A stretch of DNA of 64,000 bases from Acidimicrobiia bacterium (GTDB taxonomy: Bacteria > Actinomycetota > Acidimicrobiia > IMCC26256 > JBBRZM01): assembly GCA_038236695.1 (NCBI GenBank), contig JBBRZM010000001.1:14177-78176 (forward strand), in the 5' to 3' direction. The notes beneath the pieces were generated by a model. That model ran no database searches and was not told the origin of the DNA. It worked only from the letters and a program-made list of their open reading frames with translations. Made by a program: the position numbers and the translations under genes. Below are positions 7,145 to 27,356 of this stretch, in pieces. How positions within the stretch are numbered: the stretch's first letter is position 1; the number at the start of each line of letters is the position of its first letter.

Positions 7145-7909
7145 TCATGACGCGCGCACGTCGTGAAGCGCACGTTCGTCTGCCCCGATGGGAGCTGACG
7201 AACGGGTATCGGCTTCGAGCGGCTCAAGCCGCGCGCCGTCGCGTTCGATCCATTGGTGGGTTCGTAGCACTCGCCACTCGACAAGCTGACCGTTACCGAT
7301 CGCGTGCAGTACCTCACTGGGACGGGTGCCACGTGGTTGCGTGGAGACTTCGAGGTCGAGGAGCACGCCGGCCGCATCGCGTCCGCACACGGTGAGGCGG
7401 CGCAACGTCGGGCGGATGTCCTCGACGACCTCTCGGCCCTTGCGGGTGCGCGCCGTCTCCAGTGACGCGCGGGCCATCGCGGCCTCGACCAAAGTCGAGA
7501 CGTCAGATTCGGTGATCGAGCGGTCGGCGGCGCCAACCGTTTCGACCCGGTAGGTGACCGCGGTGATCGCCTCTTGCAGCGCGGGCGCACGTTCGTGCAG
7601 CGCGGCGACGCCGGTCACCTCGATGCCTTCCGGCAGCGCGGCGGACAGCGACGATGGGAGTCGATCGGGCTCGACCGCATCCGCAAGCTCGAAGTCGAGG
7701 TATTCAGCGTCGCTCTCGTGACCCACCGATAACGCGAGCCCGAAGCTCACTTTCGGCCGGGGCGAGAATCCCAGCGTGAACGCGAGCGGGAGCTGCTCGA
7801 TGCGAAATGCACGCTCGAACGCGCGGGCGACGTCGCGGTGCCCGATGAACCGCACTTTGCCGCGCTTCGTGAAGCGCAACCTGACCGGGAAGCCGGTGTC
7901 GCCGCGCAT
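7145..7909 (-). CDS. radical-SAM-linked protein (TIGR03936 / DUF2344 type)
   Basis: MRGDTGFPVRLRFTKRGKVRFIGHRDVARAFERAFR... ATG 7909 overlaps the stop of the upstream radical SAM gene (ATGA). The ORF-track extension to 8167 is antisense-free overprinting. Confidence 0.75.
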   Translation of the reverse strand: MRGDTGFPVRLRFTKRGKVRFIGHRDVARAFERAFRIEQLPLAFTLGFSPRPKVSFGLALSVGHESDAEYLDFELADAVEPDRLPSSLSAALPEGIEVTGVAALHERAPALQEAITAVTYRVETVGAADRSITESDVSTLVEAAMARASLETARTRKGREVVEDIRPTLRRLTVCGRDAAGVLLDLEVSTQPRGTRPSEVLHAIGNGQLVEWRVLRTHQWIERDGARLEPLEADTRSSAPIGADERALHDVRAS

Positions 7910-9855
7910 CAGGACGCCACCCCGACCCTGGTCGGCAGCAGCCGCACCGGTACGTCGCCACCGGAGGACAGGTCTTGTCCGGTGCCCTGACTTCCGCCTG
8001 CCGGCGCGAGCGCGGACGCGACGACATGCTCGAGGGCGTAGTCGGTGCACACGCCACAGTCGTAGCAGGGCGTCCAGCGACAGTCGGGGAGGCCGTGCTC
8101 GGCCAGTGCCTCTTGCCAGTCGTGCCAGAGAAAGTCGCGGTGCAGCCCGGCCGCGATGTGATCCCACGGGAGAATCTCGTCAGCGGTGCGGTGCCGCGTG
8201 ACGTACCAGTCGGGGTCGAGGCCCTCGGCCGCCATCGCATCGAGCCACCGTGCGAGCTCGAAGCGTTCGCTCCATTCCTGGAACGTGCCGCCGCCGCGCC
8301 AGACCCGCTCGATCACGCGCCCGATCCGCCGGTCACCTCGACTGACGATGCCCTCGGCGAACGTCGCTTCGGGATCGTGCCACTTGATGTTGGCGCCGGT
8401 CTTGCGCAGCGCGTCGCGCAGCATCGAGACCTTGCGGGCCAGCTCCGGCACGCCGTTCTGGCCGAACCACTGGAACGGCGTGTGCGCCTTGGGTACGAAG
8501 CCGCCGACCGACGCGGTGCAACTCGCTTGCTTGGTGTGCTTGCGCCCGACGGCGACGACATTCTTGGCCAGCTCCGCGATGCCGAGCGTGTCGGCGTCCA
8601 TCTCGGTGGGCAGCCCGATCATGAAGTAGAGCTTCACCCGGCGCCATCCCTGGGAGTACGCGCCATCGACCGCCGCGTAGAGATCTTCCTCGGTGATCAT
8701 TTTGTTGATGACCTGGCGCATGCGCCAGGTGCCGGCCTCGGGCGCGAACGTGAGCCCGGTCCGGCGCACCTTCTGGATCTCGCTCGCGAGGCCCACCGTG
8801 AACGCGTCGACGCGCAGCGATGGGAGCGACAGGCTGACCTTGCCGCAACCCTCCTGGTCGTTGACGAGCCCGGCGACGAGGCCGTCGATGCCGGAGAAGT
8901 CGGCGCTCGACAGCGACGTCAGCGCGACTTCGTCGTAGCCGGTGCGGCGCAGGCCGTCGAGCACCATCGTGCGCGCCTGCTCTTCGGGCCGCTCCCGCAC
9001 CGGACGCGTGATCATGCCGGCCTGGCAGAACCGACACCCGCGCGTGCAGCCGCGGAAGATCTCGACGTTGAGCCGGTCGTGTACCACTTCGATCAGCGGC
9101 ACGAGCTGCTGCTTGGGGTACGGCCACTCGGCCAGGTCGGCGACCGTGCGCTTGTCGACACTCGCCGGCACGTCGTCGAACCGGGACCGCACCTCGGCGA
9201 TGAACGCGCCGTCATACGTGATGTCGTACATCGACGGTACGTAGACACCCGGCACGGTCGCCAACTCGTGCAGCAGGCCCTCGCGACTGGAGCGCCCGGC
9301 GCGTTTCCACCGGCCGATGACCTCGTTGATCTCGCCGACGGGCTCTTCGCCGTCGCCGATCACGAACGCGTCGACGAAGTCAGCCAGGGGTTCGGGGTTG
9401 AACGTGCAATGGCCCCCCGCGACCACGATCGGGTGCTCGGTGCCGCGATCCTCGCCCCGTACCGGCACGTTGGCGAGGTCGAGGCAGTTGAGCAGATTGG
9501 TCGACACCAGCTCGGCCGAGACGTTGAACGCCAGCACGTCGAACTGACCGCCGTCGCGGTGGCTATCGACGGAGAAGAGCGGCACCGACGCGGCCCGCAT
9601 CTCGGCCTCCATGTCGATCCAGGGCGCGTAGGAGCGCTCGGCGACGGCGTCGTCGCGCTCGTTGAGGATCTCGTAAAGGATCTGGAGCCCCTGGTTGGGT
9701 AGCCCGATCTCGTAAGTGTCGGGGTAGATGAGCAGCCAAGCGACGGATTCCGGCCGGTGCGCCGGCCTGACGCTGCCTCGTTCCATCCCGATGTAGCGAG
9801 CGGGCTTTTCGACCCTGGCCAGGAGCGGTTCGACCGCGGGCCAAAGGTTGGACAT
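7909..9855 (-). CDS. B12-binding-domain radical SAM protein (TIGR03960 type)
   Basis: 648 aa. CX3CX2C cluster motif in FRGCTRGCRFCQAG. N-terminal region YIGMERGS..IYPDTYEIGLPNQGLQILY is typical of this family. Confidence 0.8.
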   Translation of the reverse strand: MSNLWPAVEPLLARVEKPARYIGMERGSVRPAHRPESVAWLLIYPDTYEIGLPNQGLQILYEILNERDDAVAERSYAPWIDMEAEMRAASVPLFSVDSHRDGGQFDVLAFNVSAELVSTNLLNCLDLANVPVRGEDRGTEHPIVVAGGHCTFNPEPLADFVDAFVIGDGEEPVGEINEVIGRWKRAGRSSREGLLHELATVPGVYVPSMYDITYDGAFIAEVRSRFDDVPASVDKRTVADLAEWPYPKQQLVPLIEVVHDRLNVEIFRGCTRGCRFCQAGMITRPVRERPEEQARTMVLDGLRRTGYDEVALTSLSSADFSGIDGLVAGLVNDQEGCGKVSLSLPSLRVDAFTVGLASEIQKVRRTGLTFAPEAGTWRMRQVINKMITEEDLYAAVDGAYSQGWRRVKLYFMIGLPTEMDADTLGIAELAKNVVAVGRKHTKQASCTASVGGFVPKAHTPFQWFGQNGVPELARKVSMLRDALRKTGANIKWHDPEATFAEGIVSRGDRRIGRVIERVWRGGGTFQEWSERFELARWLDAMAAEGLDPDWYVTRHRTADEILPWDHIAAGLHRDFLWHDWQEALAEHGLPDCRWTPCYDCGVCTDYALEHVVASALAPAGGSQGTGQDLSSGGDVPVRLLPTRVGVAS

Positions 9856-11058: not shown

Positions 11059-13016
11059 CAGTCGATCGCCTTCGGCGCCGCGACGAGAGGATTGCTCGGC
11101 GCAAGTCCGGCGAGCTTCTCGAGGATCGTCCGCACGATCGGCGCGGCAACCGCAGACCCGAAGCCGGCCTCCTCGACAACCGCGGCCACGACGTACTGCG
11201 GGTTGTCGGTGGGCATGATGCCGACGAACAGCGACGTGGTCGACTTGTTGTTGACCTCCGCCGTACCGGTCTTGCCCGCGATCGACACCTTGTCGAATGG
11301 AAATCCCTTGAACGGCTGCGCCGCGGTTCCGGTGCGCGGCACACCTTCGAGGCCGGCGAGGATCGCGCTGCGCGCCGCGGGATCGAGGTGCGTGGACGCG
11401 AGCGTGTGCGGGGCGAGATCGCGCACGACGGTGGGGCTGTCGTAGTCACGGATCTGTGAGGCGAGCCTCGGCGTCAGCAGCTCGCCGCCGTTCGCGAACG
11501 CGGCGTAGCCACGCGCGAGTTGGAGCGGGGTGACGAGCAAGTCGCCCTGTCCCACCGCGAGGTTGACGCTGTCGCCCGGAAGCCAAATCGAGTTCTCGGC
11601 CTTCACGCGCGGATTGGGCTGGTTCTTGTTGAAGTCCTTCTTGAACGCCTCGTCGGGGATCCGCCCGGCCGCCTCACCGTCGAGACCGACGTCGGTCGGC
11701 TGACCGAAGCCGTAGGTGCGCGCGCTGTTCTGGATCGCGTAACCGGTCGTGGTGTCGCCGCGGTGGAAGCGGCCCCAGAAGTCGGCGCCGAGCGTGTAGA
11801 AGTACACGTCGCTCGACACGGTGAGTGCCTTTTGCAGGCTGATCGCTCCGTTGCGCGTGCCCCCCGCGTTGTGGAACGTGAAGCCGCCGACTTTGATCGA
11901 ACCGTTGTCGTTGATCACGCGGCCGGGGCTGGTCACGCCGGCGTCGAGCGCCGCGATCGCGCTGAACGTCTTCCACGTGGATCCGGGTGCGTACTGGCCC
12001 TGAACGGCACGGTCGATCAACGGGAAGTGGTTGGCGGGGTCGTTGAGCGCCTTGAACTGGTCGGTGGGGATCCCGTTGAGGAACTCGTTCGGGTCGTACG
12101 TGGGGTTGGACGCCATCGCGACCACCGACCCGTCCTGCGCGTTGAGCACCACGACCGAACCCGCCGGTGCTGCGAACCGGCCCGACCCTGACTTGGCCGA
12201 CGCGTCGCGCAGCCCCCGCGCTTGACGCATCGCATCGGCGAGCGTCTGCTCCGCGGTCTGTTGGATGTCGAGGTCGATCGTGAGCTGTACGTCGTGGCCG
12301 GGCCCGGCCGGACGCTCGTCGACGGTGCGCAACGGTTTGCCGCGGCTATCGACCTCGATCTTGTCGATCTGCGGCTTGCCGCGAAGCTCCGACTCGAACA
12401 TCTGCTCCGCGCCCGACTTCCCTACCGTCTCGCCGAGTTGGTAATGCGCGTCGCGTTGCTGCTTGAGCTCGGCGTCACTCACTTCGCCGGTGTAACCAAG
12501 CACGTGGGCACCAAGTGAGCCTCCCGGATACGAGCGGATCGGGATCTGATCGGCTTCGACGCCGGGGAAGTCTTGCTGGTGCTCTTTGATGACTGTGATG
12601 GCGTCGATCGACACGCCGGTCGCGACCGGCACCGGACGGTACGGCGAGATCCGCTTGTCGTTGAGCCGCTTCTCGATCGACGCCGGCGGCACCTGCAGCA
12701 TGAAGGCGAGCCGCGCGACGACCAGCTTGAGATTCTGGGGCGTGATCTTGCGGTCGACCAGGATGGCGTTCTCGACGCGGTTCTGCGCGAGCACGCGTCC
12801 CTTGTCATCGAGGAGACGACCGCGCAGCCCGGGTGTTTGCACGATGCGTACGGAGTTGCGGGTCGCGACCGCGGCCAGCTTCTGGCCGGCACCCGCTTGG
12901 AGGAACCACAGCCGGGCGAGCAAGGTGCAGAAGAGCGCCATGACCACGATGCCGATGACGCTGAGACGCACGCGTGGGTTGGCCTCGGACGCGTGCCGGC
13001 GGTCGGAAGAGCTCAT
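11058..13016 (-). CDS. mrdA: penicillin-binding protein 2 (elongation transpeptidase)
   Basis: N-terminal membrane anchor, PBP dimerisation domain, and transpeptidase motifs STWK, SSD and KTGTAE. Confidence 0.85.
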   Translation of the reverse strand: MSSSDRRHASEANPRVRLSVIGIVVMALFCTLLARLWFLQAGAGQKLAAVATRNSVRIVQTPGLRGRLLDDKGRVLAQNRVENAILVDRKITPQNLKLVVARLAFMLQVPPASIEKRLNDKRISPYRPVPVATGVSIDAITVIKEHQQDFPGVEADQIPIRSYPGGSLGAHVLGYTGEVSDAELKQQRDAHYQLGETVGKSGAEQMFESELRGKPQIDKIEVDSRGKPLRTVDERPAGPGHDVQLTIDLDIQQTAEQTLADAMRQARGLRDASAKSGSGRFAAPAGSVVVLNAQDGSVVAMASNPTYDPNEFLNGIPTDQFKALNDPANHFPLIDRAVQGQYAPGSTWKTFSAIAALDAGVTSPGRVINDNGSIKVGGFTFHNAGGTRNGAISLQKALTVSSDVYFYTLGADFWGRFHRGDTTTGYAIQNSARTYGFGQPTDVGLDGEAAGRIPDEAFKKDFNKNQPNPRVKAENSIWLPGDSVNLAVGQGDLLVTPLQLARGYAAFANGGELLTPRLASQIRDYDSPTVVRDLAPHTLASTHLDPAARSAILAGLEGVPRTGTAAQPFKGFPFDKVSIAGKTGTAEVNNKSTTSLFVGIMPTDNPQYVVAAVVEEAGFGSAVAAPIVRTILEKLAGLAPSNPLVAAPKAID

Positions 13017-23390: not shown

Positions 23391-23429
23391 GGGGAAAGGC
23401 AGTGTACTCGCCGGCCCTCGCGATCAGGG

Positions 23430-24331
23430 ATGTTCCGCGACGACGTCCCAGCGCGCCTGGTGACGGCGGTACCGTTTCGTGCGGTGCGTGATCTCTCGTT
23501 CACGACGGTGCTCGCGGTGGCGGCGATCGCGTTGGTTGCGCCGCTGCTCGTGCTGCTCGCACCGCAACTGCGTATGCCGGCAGTCGTGCTCGAGATCCTG
23601 CTCGGACCGTCGGGCTTCGACTGGATTCGCGTCGATGTGCCGGTGAGCGTGCTCGCGCTCCTCGGCCTCGGTTTCCTGTTGTTCCTCGCCGGGCTCGAGA
23701 TCGATCCCACGCGTCTCCGTCATGGCTTCGGGCGAATCCTGATCGCGTTCGTGATCTCGCTCGGCCTCGCCGCGGTCATCGGCAGGGGCATCGACGTCTA
23801 CGGCGAGACCGACGCACCACTGTTCATCGCGATCACGCTCGCGTCGACTTCGCTCGGGCTCGTGGTGCCGGTCATGCGCGACGCCGGTGAGACCGACACC
23901 GATTTCGGGCAACTCGTGATGACCGCGAGCACCGTCGCGGAGTTCGGATCCATCGTGCTCGTCTCGCTGTTCTGGCCGGCGCGTTGCTGCGGATCGTCGA
24001 CCGCGACCAGAAGCTCGTCCACGAGCACTTCCGGGCCAAGGTCGAGGCGATCGGCTATGGGTTCCTCATCCCTGTGTTCTTCGTCGCGAGCGGCCTCCGC
24101 TTCGACGCCGACGCGCTGTTCAAGGACGGGCACCACCTGCTGCTGGTCCCGATGTTCCTCGCCGCGATCTTTGTCGTGCGCGCGCTGCCGACGTTGATCT
24201 ACCGGCCGCTCATGGGCCCGCGCCACACGGCAGTCGCGGCACTGCTCCAGGCGACGACGCTGACGTTCCCGGTCGTCGCCGCACACTTGGGCGTGCAACT
24301 CAAGGTCTTCGACACCGCGACCGCCGCTTGA
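23430..24331 (+). pseudogene. cation:proton antiporter (CPA2-like), frameshifted and probably internally deleted
   Basis: The N-terminal part (...RMPAVVLEILLGPSGFDWI...TVAEFGSIVLVSLF) runs in the frame of ORF 22767..24197. The C-terminal part (LAGALLRIVDRDQKLVHEHFRAKVEAIGYGFLIPVFFVASGLRFD...) runs in the frame of ORF 23984..24331. The switch lies near 23965-23975. The combined length of about 300 aa is short for the family. Confidence 0.55.
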
Positions 24332-24419
24332 TCGCGGCCCTCGGCACCGAACTGATTTCTCCGCATACGCCGCGTCACCCAAGCCTCCGACCGATGTCGC
24401 CTACGCTCAGAAGCTCAGC

Positions 24420-24458
24420 CGGGAAGTAGCGCAGCGTGGTAGCGCACCTGCTTTGGGA
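24420..24458 (+). repeat. orphan 5' half of tRNA-Pro (direct repeat of 25455..25493)
   Basis: 38 of 39 nt are identical to positions 1-39 of the intact tRNA-Pro, from the acceptor 5' strand through the anticodon loop. No T-arm follows. Confidence 0.75.
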
Positions 24459-24625
24459 TTCCCGAACGCCAAGCGCTGCGGCCGTAAGGCGCTGACCTGC
24501 GAGTCAACCTGCCTGCGAGCAGCGTCGCGGCCCGAATTATCTGCGCACTACGCAGCGCGAATGCGTCACGGCCACGCCGACGGGGCACAACTCAATCGAC
24601 AGCCACTCAAGCACCGGAGGCCGCG

Positions 24626-24784
24626 ATGAATTCGCCACAGCTCGAGCTCGACGCTATCGACGACGCCCTGCGAGAGATCCAAAACATGCTCGGCCGGCTC
24701 CGCGACGCGAACCTCGCGGTAAGAAGGCGCGTCGCTCGGCTCGAAATCGCGACAGCGCTCGAGAACGGTCAGACGGCCGAATAG
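24626..24784 (+). CDS. small hypothetical coiled-coil protein (52 aa)
   Basis: Below the ORF-track cutoff. GGAGG lies 5 nt upstream of ATG 24626. Translation: MNSPQLELDAIDDALREIQNMLGRLRDANLAVRRRVARLEIATALENGQTAE. It uses GTA/AGA/AGG codons that look rare in the surrounding genes. Confidence 0.3.
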   Translation: MNSPQLELDAIDDALREIQNMLGRLRDANLAVRRRVARLEIATALENGQTAE

Positions 24785-25360
24785 CGCCGACCGCGCTCCC
24801 GCGGCCCCATTCTCGAACTGTGCGCGGTCGTCTCGACGACGGAGCGAAGGTGCGCGTGTTCGCCCGACAGACGATGAACCTCGGCCCGTAGCTCGGCGTT
24901 CTGGCCCACCACGTACGCCAGCACCATTTCCGCGTCACTGCGCCTGCACAGTGTTACCGACCCCTGGCCGCGCACGCTCATGTCGCTCACGGTGACCTGC
25001 GCGACGAAACGGAGCGAGCCGGCGCGCCGGACGACTCTCTCGGCCGGCGCGGGCTTGGCCGGCGGTGGCAGTAGGTGTATGCGCGGCCGCGAGCCTTGGG
25101 CCGGCCCGCCGACCGGCACGGTGATGATGTCGGCGTCGTGCAACCTTCGTGTTGGTGGCCCAGAGCCGAAGGTCGGCGGCAGAAACGGTCGCGCCTTGAG
25201 CGATGTTTACATTGGGGAAATGGAGCCCCATGACAACGGCCGATGAGCCGGCTGTGTCATTCCTGATCGCGAAGCTCGTCTCGACGAGAGCGACCCCGCC
25301 GACGCTATTCTCTCGGGCGTCGTCGGCCCCCGCGCCGATGATGATGGACTGGTTCGCCAC
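24769..25360 (-). pseudogene. frameshifted remnant of a surface/carbohydrate-binding-like protein
   Basis: Two minus-strand frames (ORFs 24935..25513 and 24769..25143) abut near 25140-25150. The upstream frame carries LHFPNVNIAQGATVSAADLRLWA, reminiscent of DNRLRE-type domains. There is no convincing start. Confidence 0.3.
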
Positions 25361-25454
25361 GTCAGCCCCACTGCATCCGCATGACGCCGAGCGCTTGAGT
25401 AAGAGGGATTTTCGCCCCGGGCTCGCGTAAGGTGCTGGTGGGCGGGCGATTTTC

Positions 25455-25528
25455 CGGGGAGTAGCGCAGCGTGGTAGCGCACCTGCTTTGGGAGCAGGAG
25501 GTCGGGGGTTCAAGTCCCCCCTCCCCGA
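25455..25528 (+). tRNA. tRNA-Pro (anticodon TGG)
   Basis: Cloverleaf read by hand: acceptor CGGGGAG/CTCCCCG, anticodon arm CCTGC-TTTGGGA-GCAGG, T-arm GGGGG-TTCAAGT-CCCCC, discriminator A. Confidence 0.9.
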
Positions 25529-25565
25529 CTGGTACGACGAACGCGCGCGTTACCGTCGCGGCCTC

Positions 25566-25639
25566 GCGGGTGTAGCTCAATGGCAGAGTCCCAGCCTTCC
25601 AAGCTGGTCATGCGGGTTCGATTCCCGTCACCCGCTCCA
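25566..25639 (+). tRNA. tRNA-Gly (anticodon TCC), CCA encoded
   Basis: Acceptor GCGGGTG/CACCCGC, anticodon arm CCAGC-CTTCCAA-GCTGG, T-loop TTCGATT, 3' TCCA. Confidence 0.9.
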
Positions 25640-25747
25640 TGTCATCAGCGCAGGTCAACCGCTACGCAGCGCCACTGGTCGGCAATTCTGCGCGCGTCTT
25701 ACCGTCCGTCGTGGCGCGTTGCGTGATTGACACCATTGGGGGCTCCC

Positions 25748-26461
25748 CTACTTACGTGGCTTGCGAAACTGCGCTTGCGCGTCGAGCAGCTTTTTGCGGT
25801 GCAGCGTGCGTGCCGTCTCCCTGTCGAACTTCTCGTTCCCCAATAGCTTCCCCGGCTCTGGTGGTGAATTGCCTCGCGCTTCGTCGCTCGTGCCGTCGAG
25901 CGCGTTCGCGGTCGCGACGAGCTTCGATAATTCGTCGAAGTACCCCTCGAGCAACACGATTCGCTCCACGAGGTTGTTGAGTCCCTGCTCCATTTTCTCG
26001 AGTGCCTCCCGGTGCGCTCCGTCGCTCGTGCCGTCGAGCGCGTTCGCGGTCGCGACGAGCTTCGATAATTCATCGAAGTACCCCTCGAGCAACACGATTC
26101 GCTCCACGAGGTTGTTGAGTCCCTGCTCCATTTTCTCGAGTGCCTCCCGGTGCGCTCCAAGGTGTCCGTCGACCGCCGCCAGGAGCGTGCCGACACTGGC
26201 AGACTCCCCCCACTGGGTGTTCGAGAGGCAGAGGTCCGATCGGCTCTCGTCGCGATTTTCGGTGTCGGCGCCCGCGACGAGCGACGCGAACGAATCCTCG
26301 TCGAAAGGATGCGCCACCATGACCTCAGCCGGCCCGCCTGCAGTCGCGCCCAACACGATTCGCACGGCGCCCGACTCGTCGACGATCTCGAGGTAGCGGG
26401 CGCGGATCGTATCGACGACCAGTGCGCGGTCAGTGGGCACACGGTCCGTAATCTTGACCAT
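25748..26461 (-). CDS. hypothetical protein with an internal 46-aa tandem duplication
   Basis: 237 aa. AGGAGGAG lies 6 nt upstream of ATG 26461. A coiled-coil-like unit, AHREALEKMEQGLNNLVERIVLLEGYFDELSKLVATANALDGTSD, occurs twice, followed by a basic C-terminal tail. Confidence 0.6.
   Translation of the reverse strand: MVKITDRVPTDRALVVDTIRARYLEIVDESGAVRIVLGATAGGPAEVMVAHPFDEDSFASLVAGADTENRDESRSDLCLSNTQWGESASVGTLLAAVDGHLGAHREALEKMEQGLNNLVERIVLLEGYFDELSKLVATANALDGTSDGAHREALEKMEQGLNNLVERIVLLEGYFDELSKLVATANALDGTSDEARGNSPPEPGKLLGNEKFDRETARTLHRKKLLDAQAQFRKPRK
25882..26157. repeat. 138-bp perfect-phase tandem duplication (2 copies, 1 mismatch)
   Basis: 25882..26019 and 26020..26157 are identical except for one position (ttcGtcgaag versus ttcAtcgaag). 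Confidence 0.9.
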
Positions 26462-26521
26462 GTCGGCTCCTCCTAGTAGGTGCTGGCCGTCCCCCGGGCC
26501 GTTTTGCGCGGTGCCGGGGGC

Positions 26522-26923
26522 TTATTCGTTCCCTGCCCTGGAGGTCAACGTACACGCCCGGATCGCGGGCGGGGCATCGGCGACCGGCGCGACATCCCGC
26601 TGCACCTGTGCTTCGAAGCGGCGCCCATCGACTCGGAGCAGTTTCAAGCCAGTCGGGGCCGCGACCTCGACAAGCACCGGCCCGGGCTCGTCGTCGGCGA
26701 CCCCTGGTACGCCTACCACGGCACCAGCGACTCGAGGAATCTCCACGAGGAAGTCGGGCTGCTCGCGTCGCTCAGCAACCCGATTAGCGCCGCGGGTGCG
26801 TCGCTCAGGCCAACGGACACTTCGAGCTCGTGCTCGAGGTCGGTCGCGCCAATGGTGGGGATGCATGGCCGCGTGGACGCCGGCGTCCACGAGCGTCGTT
26901 CCATGGCACATTCCATGCCGCAC
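26522..26923 (-). CDS. hypothetical protein (start uncertain)
   Basis: 133-aa ORF. Only the C-terminal ~75 aa (DFLVEIPRVAGAVVGVPGVADDEPGPVLVEV...) look protein-like, with weak resemblance to the N-terminus of the 25748..26461 product. A 7-bp GC hairpin follows the stop. Confidence 0.3.
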   Translation of the reverse strand: MRHGMCHGTTLVDAGVHAAMHPHHWRDRPRARARSVRWPERRTRGANRVAERREQPDFLVEIPRVAGAVVGVPGVADDEPGPVLVEVAAPTGLKLLRVDGRRFEAQVQRDVAPVADAPPAIRACTLTSRAGNE

Positions 26924-27029
26924 GCCGCCGCGTTCGCCGACGTTCGTGACTGTTTGCTGACGACGCGATCTGTTGAGACGTCAACCATTCCGTTCGCCCG
27001 CGTTCGCCGCTGATCGGTCTAACCGTGCC

Positions 27030-27069
27030 TCCAAGCTGGTCATGCGGGTTTGATTCCCGTCACCCGCTC
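27030..27069 (+). repeat. orphan 3' half of tRNA-Gly (direct repeat of 25598..25637)
   Basis: 39 of 40 nt are identical, starting exactly at the anticodon. The single difference hits the T-loop (TTCGATT to TTTGATT). Confidence 0.8.
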
Positions 27070-27158
27070 TGCAGCACGGCGCGGCTACGCAGCCGATCTG
27101 AGCAACCAGGCTCCGGCGAACGTCGCCAACCGCAGCTCCGCGGACTTCTGCTTCGGGA

Positions 27159-27356
27159 ATGCTGCGATCGGCTTGCCCGCGCTGTCGGCATACACGTTCC
27201 AGACCGCGGACACCGTCAGATAACGACACGCTGCTGGGCCGGGGTGCCGACCCGAACGGGCTCGCATACTGGGTCGGCGCGATCAGTCGCGGACATCGCG
27301 ACGAAGAAGTGATCGCACTGATCGTCGGTTCCAGCGAATACCTGTCGCGCCTCTGA
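27159..27356 (+). pseudogene. C-terminal fragment of a DUF4214-domain protein
   Basis: The ORF ends in TLLGRGADPNGLAYWVGAISRGHRDEEVIALIVGSSEYLSRL, matching the DUF4214 pattern (LGR..D..G..yW......G.....v......S.EY). No upstream domain or credible start is present. Confidence 0.4.

Follow-up and report, generated by a model that had tools for sequence, protein, structure and literature searches.

A displaced tRNA-Pro(UGG) 5' half and a decaying 1-kb insert upstream of the tRNA-Pro/tRNA-Gly pair in an uncultured Acidimicrobiia lineage

The locus and its insert

The DNA analysed here, referred to as the window, is a stretch of 64,000 nucleotides whose trigger factor relatives place it in uncultured Acidimicrobiia. 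The minus-strand genes clpX, clpP and tig lie on the left side of the locus and are followed by a Na+/H+ antiporter pseudogene (23400-24331), which is frameshifted and from which about 90 profile positions are absent. A tRNA-Pro/tRNA-Gly pair upstream of tig recurs in Acidimicrobiia relatives. Genomes and contigs used for comparison are designated by L numbers, and the features of the window locus are the following.

24375-24418, plus strand: native upstream flank of tRNA-Pro (B arm of attL), homologous to the flanks in L034, L012 and L009
24419-24458, plus strand: displaced original 5' half of tRNA-Pro(UGG), positions -1 to 39, attL identity block (39/40 repeat)
24459-24550, plus strand: element-derived left arm (P' arm) of Family A, detected by nhmmer, including CTGACCTGC (24492-24500) and CCCGAATTATCTGCGC (24533-24548)
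24626-24784, plus strand: 52-aa ORF, a cargo gene without family match (GC3 frame signal)
24769-25360, minus strand: decaying cargo gene with a GTG start at 25360 (GC3 frame switch, frame translations)
25361-25453, plus strand: element-derived right arm (P arm), now upstream of the tRNA operon, non-homologous to the native flanks
25455-25529, plus strand: intact tRNA-Pro(UGG), attR (ARAGORN; Rfam, 70 bits)
25566-25639, plus strand: tRNA-Gly(UCC), 36 nt downstream of tRNA-Pro (ARAGORN, Rfam)
25640-27069, plus strand: integrase-less 1.4-kb tRNA-Gly island, ending in a displaced tRNA-Gly 3' half (27030-27069, detected as a repeat)

A first reading of this DNA, made from the sequence only, had reported that the first 39 nucleotides of tRNA-Pro are duplicated upstream of the gene with 38 identical positions. 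A repeat search confirmed the duplication and lengthened it by one base, as position -1 is included: the direct repeat measures 40 nt (24419-24458 versus 25454-25493) and is identical at 39 of them. The sole mismatch is a G5 to A change in the upstream copy, which would break an acceptor-stem pair. The fragment is on the same strand as the intact gene, upstream of it. Both copies match to the very end of the 7-nt anticodon loop, TTTGGGA (24452-24458 in the fragment), after which the upstream copy continues with TTCCC and the gene with GCAGG (TTCCCGAACGCC versus GCAGGAGGTCGG over a longer stretch); the upstream copy indeed carries nothing 3' of the loop, as had been stated. At its other side the fragment extends as far as the gene does, and its stop at the anticodon loop coincides with a recognised crossover subsite. 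Upstream of position -1, the two copies have nothing in common.

The 1-kb interval between the copies had been described as carrying a 52-aa ORF with a Shine-Dalgarno sequence and a broken minus-strand ORF, and both are present. GC3 frame analysis supported two convergent coding regions. The 52-aa ORF has a GGAGG Shine-Dalgarno sequence 6 nt before its ATG, its protein is identical in five assemblies with one synonymous change in the gene, and it has no match in Pfam, PHROGs or NCBIfam. The minus-strand gene shows a frame change and, relative to L043, an internal deletion of about 305 bp near 25126-25143. The L043 version gave a weak, below-cutoff match to the DNRLRE domain (E=4.6e-4), and homologue searches with the minus-strand gene returned, besides the window's own P0001, only P0003 (33% identical). 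Exact-protein look-ups of P0001 and of the window ClpP gave no match. None of the insert ORFs scored above cutoff against Pfam, PHROGs or NCBIfam, and the type of the element cannot be read from its cargo. Neither integrase nor excisionase genes were found in the insert, and no integrase-like ORF was detected in the 64-kb window with Pfam or, even at E<=10, with an iterated HMM. A similarity search detected no resemblance of the insert to other loci or to the rest of the window, and promoter and terminator scans returned nothing useful. Profiling of GC content had been proposed as a check, but neither GC content nor skew separates the insert from its flanks; since its composition is like theirs, this check is uninformative here.

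A second scar lies next door. The tRNA-Gly 3'-half repeat (25598-25637 versus 27030-27069) is real, with 39 of 40 positions identical, and starts inside the anticodon loop. The relatives L039 and L037 have scars of this kind at tRNA-Gly, in islands that carry an integrase. The two scars differ in polarity and in sequence, in agreement with the claim that the Pro-Gly pair is flanked by independent remnants.

Native flank, empty site and decay between strains

The approximately 45 nt preceding the fragment can be aligned with the sequence that immediately precedes the intact tRNA-Pro gene of L034. They include a conserved -10-like TACGCT box (24402-24407, within TCGCCTACGCT), which recurs upstream of tRNA-Pro in L012 and L009. 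In contrast, no homology to the native flanks of these three loci was seen in the sequence before the window's intact tRNA-Pro. L034 is the closest genome locus (about 92% identical over 12 kb), and in it the flank, tRNA-Pro and tRNA-Gly follow each other uninterrupted, with no 5' fragment. When position 24458 of the window was joined in silico to 25494, the product was colinear with L034 through the flank, tRNA-Pro, the spacer and tRNA-Gly. From the intact tRNA-Pro through the spacer to tRNA-Gly, the window is 95% identical to L034. The upstream fragment is therefore the 5' half that was there first, still preceded by its native upstream sequence, and the inserted DNA comprises 995 bp plus the second 5' half. 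L034 differs elsewhere at the locus, by an extra beta-helix gene and by the lack of synteny beyond tRNA-Gly; it is the empty site of a related species and not of the same strain. The presence of the native flank on the fragment only, and the restoration of the L034 empty site by excision, support the earlier proposal of an insertion as opposed to a local segmental duplication.

The layout of fragment, insert and tRNA was found in five assemblies from different samples; the source samples are ERZ1700618, SRR34294543, ERR5029656, SRR19962014 and ERR14841212. These include L043, an ENA contig of 332 kb that is about 97.5% identical, and the Logan contigs L044, L045 and L046. As independent assemblies share this layout, an assembly artefact is excluded. 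One of these contigs, L045 (1061 bp), corresponds to window positions 24429-25489; both of its ends lie inside the repeat copies, with a 30-nt overlap, as would be seen both with a de Bruijn graph broken at the repeat and with an excised circle.

The fragment varies between these strains whereas the intact tRNA-Pro is constant. In L044 it is identical to the gene, the window has the G5A change, L043 reads CCTCCTATGGGA, and L046 carries further substitutions; the changes in L043 and L046 fall in the anticodon stem and loop. The minus-strand cargo gene differs as well, as L044 has an in-frame 201-aa version, L043 keeps the approximately 305 bp that are absent from the window but is frameshifted further on, and the window combines the deletion with the frame change. 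Such strain differences are typical of decay. The insert had been called decayed, and the missing integrase, the deleted and frameshifted gene and the substitutions in the fragment bear this out. We read the window insert as a fixed, decaying attL/attR scar of about 1 kb without integrase. A dead scar is favoured because the sister strains mutate the att core.

The same variation bears on whether the fragment might be part of a functional RNA, namely a leader or regulatory RNA that derives from a tRNA half and starts at the native tRNA promoter. The fragment has kept the native TACGCT box, and no terminator is predicted before the 52-aa ORF, which makes read-through into the insert plausible. 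However, stem and loop positions of the fragment vary between strains, the predicted folding of 24420-24630 is no better than that of shuffled sequences (z=0.25), and an Rfam search over the window at E<=1 returned tRNAs only. On these grounds a functional tRNA-half RNA was rejected as scarcely credible.

Relatives of the 5' half and of its arms

The break at the end of the anticodon loop is not peculiar to this locus. In the genomes L007 and L030, tRNA-Pro 5' halves stop at the same nucleotide and are followed by window-like sequence. Metagenomes were scanned for the 3' part of the 5' half in cases where the next base is unable to complete the anticodon stem. At least 120 stretches were recovered, nearly all of them full 5' halves ending at the loop, a number that is not a frequency estimate, as the scan excluded intact genes by design. 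Among the matches listed, more than 100 metagenome fragments are cut at the same nucleotide and continue into conserved arms, and the arms next to the truncated 5' half form at least four conserved families.

One of them, Family A, is associated with an actinobacterial-type tRNA and has an arm of about 90 nt, directly 3' of the truncated loop, with the consensus CTAGCGNACGCTGAACGCTGTGCTGACCTGC ... CGCCGAGTTATGTGCGC. Its members are L007, L030 and about 15 metagenome contigs (at least 17 besides the window). When the 64-kb window was searched by nhmmer with a profile of 12 Family A arms, all of them from other loci, a single hit was obtained, at 24463-24550 (E=3.2e-5), and by this match the left arm of the window is assigned to Family A. 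Different members have different cargo beside the arm, as would be expected of elements that have their att sites in common but vary in content. A conserved first gene, which might have been an excisionase, was sought by comparing the members, and none exists.

A complete Family A unit was found in L088, which contains the fragment, 4.2 kb of DNA and an intact tRNA-Pro, and the left end of the same element is covered by a second contig, L177. This is the only complete integrase-bearing Family A element that was recovered. Its recombinase of 311 aa (PF00589, 1.9e-25) has SAM-like N-terminal domains and is Xer-like according to NCBIfam; the gene (L088 3251-4186) lies between the fragment and the intact tRNA-Pro and starts about 90 bp from the latter. 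A search of IMG/VR for relatives of this integrase found none. The cargo includes a Doc/Fic-type gene with, just upstream, a small ORF without family match, which we read as its antitoxin. The identity block of L088 begins 2-3 nt before position 1. In the arms of L088 and L085, a CTGACCTGCAG-type motif is present on both sides of the core. The right arm of the window contains a similar AAGGTGCTGGT, which resembles AAGGTGCAGGT of the L085 arm and also the L088 arm, a likeness that extends over a short motif only. These repeated motifs are putative arm-type binding sites. Integrase genes also abut the fragment in L076, L087, L095, L107, L136, L141 and L163.

The recurrence of the boundary also bears on the possibility that the repeat arose by local rearrangement that was not site-specific, either by tandem duplication of tRNA-Pro and deletion of the 3' half or by illegitimate recombination. 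The neighbourhood is rich in deletions, and the antiporter pseudogene, the tandem duplication of 138 bp and the indels between strains speak for such a rearrangement. However, the two copies share nothing upstream of position -1, the break falls at the same nucleotide in L007, L030 and the metagenome fragments, and what follows the break shows homology to a conserved arm that occurs at unrelated loci. This combination would not be expected from a deletion that ended at random, and a local rearrangement is highly improbable. Segmental duplication was likewise rejected, in view of the native flank on the fragment only, the recurring boundary and the arm homology.

Twenty-two of the 24 complete units in metagenome contigs are without a detectable integrase, and many measure 0.8-1.3 kb; L088 and L099 are the two in which an integrase was found. 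The abundance of short integrase-less units is in part an assembly bias, as only short units fit short contigs. With this limit, these units agree with an alternative in which the window insert is a still-mobile cassette without integrase, CIME- or satellite-like, whose functional att sites are served by an integrase encoded elsewhere in the genome or by an incoming one. Tandem arrays with conserved arms and differing single-gene cargo in L133, L100 and L101 point in the same direction, as do the TTTGGGA overlap region, identical in the window's attL and attR, and the conservation of the 52-aa ORF. On the other side, the stem and loop substitutions in the fragments of L043 and L046 speak against recombination competence being under selection, each strain shows its own decay of the cargo gene, the 64 kb contain no integrase, and an excised or empty form was not seen in the same population. 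We consider continued mobility of the window insert unlikely. Equally doubtful is the more general proposal that the insert is a unit of an unrecognised cassette system on the 5' side of tRNA-Pro(UGG), with arms of about 60-90 nt, one or two genes per unit, capture in trans, tandem stacking and a distribution over several phyla. If true, it would amount to an integron-like gene-capture array that is based on a tRNA gene and comprises at least four arm families.

The arrays themselves are made of units that begin with a tRNA-Pro 5' half and a conserved arm. L133 (1-3139) contains integrase-less units of 825, 1189 and 1039 bp in tandem, which end with a conserved arm and each carry a different single gene; L100 (7300-12650) contains tandem integrase-less units of 965, 983 and 3320 bp, and L101 (6500-9950) a tandem array of short integrase-less units. 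Their layout is cassette-like, and the many short integrase-less units in metagenomes, of which some form such tandem arrays, deserve more attention than the window scar.

Other relatives differ in arrangement. Family B, from marine contigs with a proteobacterial-type tRNA, has three GCGTCGG repeats in its arm. In four Family B copies (L078, L081, L131 and L150) the match to the tRNA starts only from GGTAGCGC onward, and these copies resemble attP sites in which the identity block is shorter. In L094, L148, L155 and L180 the 5' half lies only about 163 bp upstream of an intact tRNA-Pro, which makes these units too small for any gene; in L148, an integrase is located downstream of tRNA-Pro.

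Elements carrying a 5' tRNA-Pro segment in their attP, for which a database search had been suggested, were found among phage contigs. IMGVR_UViG_3300036798_000599 (L057) and IMGVR_UViG_3300036846_001033 (L060) contain a tRNA-Pro(UGG) 5' half ending at the anticodon loop, as in the window, with a tyrosine integrase about 350 bp from the 5' half and phage regulatory genes on the other side. Unlike the window, they have a proteobacterial-type tRNA and unrelated arm sequences, and their integrase is on the P' side of the site and not on the P side. A tblastn comparison of their integrase with that of L088 gave no significant match. No integrase of the phage collection is more than 37% identical to that of L060, and no named phage with a 5'-half tRNA-Pro att type was identified there. 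The suggestion of an att identity block that extends over the tRNA 5' half is sustained by the arm family on truncations at the same position, by the L088 integrase and by these phage contigs.

Integration model, known systems and surroundings

Taken with good confidence, a Family A element recombined with tRNA-Pro(UGG) through an attP carrying the tRNA 5' half, and its copy at this locus is now a decaying 1-kb scar. The attP would have consisted of an arm, tRNA-Pro positions -1 to 39 and a second arm, and an Xer-like tyrosine recombinase would have exchanged strands with the chromosomal tRNA-Pro inside the 40-nt identity block. The crossover most probably took place in the 7-nt anticodon loop, which is flanked by the inverted repeat of the stem. 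As the insert has neither integrase nor excisionase, the role of the recombinase at the window locus is argued from its relatives. The integrase may since have been lost from the window copy, or may never have been present in it.

Because the attP carries the 5' and not the 3' half, integration would move the host promoter and the original 5' half to the left end, giving attL (24375-24458). In attR (25455-25529), the 5' half of the element and the native 3' half would form a chimeric but intact gene. The need to rebuild a working gene would account for an identity block that starts at the first base of the tRNA. The rebuilt tRNA-Pro would now stand behind upstream sequence of the element, in which a -10-like TAAGGT is present at 25428-25433. 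A promoter scan found no sigma-70 consensus match on either arm; conservation of the TANNNT hexamer is what suggests that the native flank acts as promoter, and the right arm may fill this role for the rebuilt gene. The effect of the 5' polarity is that the host tRNA promoter is stranded before foreign DNA, and the tRNA-Pro/tRNA-Gly pair, if co-transcribed, would depend on sequence brought by the element.

Islands with 5' tRNA fragments are a known but rare kind, of which the window is a degenerate, integrase-less example. The Islander database contains 159 islands with 5' tDNA fragments versus 3760 with 3' fragments, and its 'A' subsite class denotes a crossover in the anticodon loop (PMC4383910); recombination of the 5'-distal type has been called 'considerably less frequent' (PMC6563490). 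The sequence-only reading had called the arrangement unusual, which holds against curated islands, 4% of which have 5' fragments (PMC4383910), but tRNA-Pro(UGG) 5' fragments are easily found in metagenomes. As in the known 5'-fragment islands, the 5' tRNA repeat lies upstream of an intact gene with its boundary at the anticodon loop ('A' subsite), complete members have a tyrosine integrase, and the 5' half together with the upstream sequence must come from the element. Unlike those of Islander, the window copy has no integrase and would therefore be rejected by the Islander filter. More generally, scars like this one are missed by island finders that require an integrase or seek only 3' fragments. 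The host of the present scar is an uncultured Acidimicrobiia lineage, in which the locus documents reversed, 5'-half integration into a tRNA gene.

CIMEs are cis-mobilizable elements that remain when an ICE has lost its recombination and transfer modules, as described for ICESt1 and ICESt3. The window insert is like them a short segment bounded by attL and attR, with cargo only and with no integrase, recombination or transfer genes. It differs from them in its reversed att polarity and in the decay of the att core in sister strains, where the substitutions argue against ongoing mobilisation of the insert. With the actinomycete ICEs pSAM2, SLP1 and pMEA300, which have a tyrosine integrase, the window insert shares an actinobacterial host and a tRNA gene as target; unlike in these elements, the identity block is the 5' half, and replication or transfer genes are lacking. 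On the Pro side, the locus is neither an AICE nor a classical 3'-end island, whereas the scar on the Gly side is of the classical type. The Pro scar had been described as the mirror image of the usual 3'-half scar, and the comparison of its 5'-half identity block with the classical 3' half next door agrees with this description.

The surroundings of the tRNA pair vary between strains as well. The antiporter gene beside the fragment shows stepwise loss, with different deletions per strain: it appears full-length in L034 (8698-9500), the window copy combines an internal deletion of about 243 bp with a frameshift and a truncated C-terminus, L043 (9470-9613) has further deletions, and L044 (12-479) has kept a longer C-terminus. 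In L034 a frameshifted gene for a secreted beta-helix-repeat protein (7485-8616) lies between the antiporter gene and tRNA-Pro; since it is absent from the window, this intergenic hotspot varies on the native side too. In L001 (7804-8676), the two tRNAs are about 725 bp apart and the orientation of tRNA-Pro is reversed with respect to tRNA-Gly and tig, which suggests an inversion at the same hotspot.

On the tRNA-Gly side, the window contains a perfect-register tandem duplication of 138 bp (25876-26151, 99% identical) inside a 237-aa minus-strand ORF of the tRNA-Gly island (25748-26461), which doubles a 46-aa coiled-coil-like segment. Directly after tRNA-Gly, window positions 25640-25662 share GCGCAGGTCAA with L034 (7205-7235). 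In L043, the 13 nt after the intact tRNA-Gly (11344-11356) match the post-scar flank of the window (27070-27082), a match that may reflect gene conversion between the Gly repeats or a longer att block. A short way past the tRNA-Gly scar lies an isolated 65-aa ORF (27159-27356) with a fragment of a DUF4214 domain (Pfam, 2.3e-6), probably another gene remnant in a decaying stretch.
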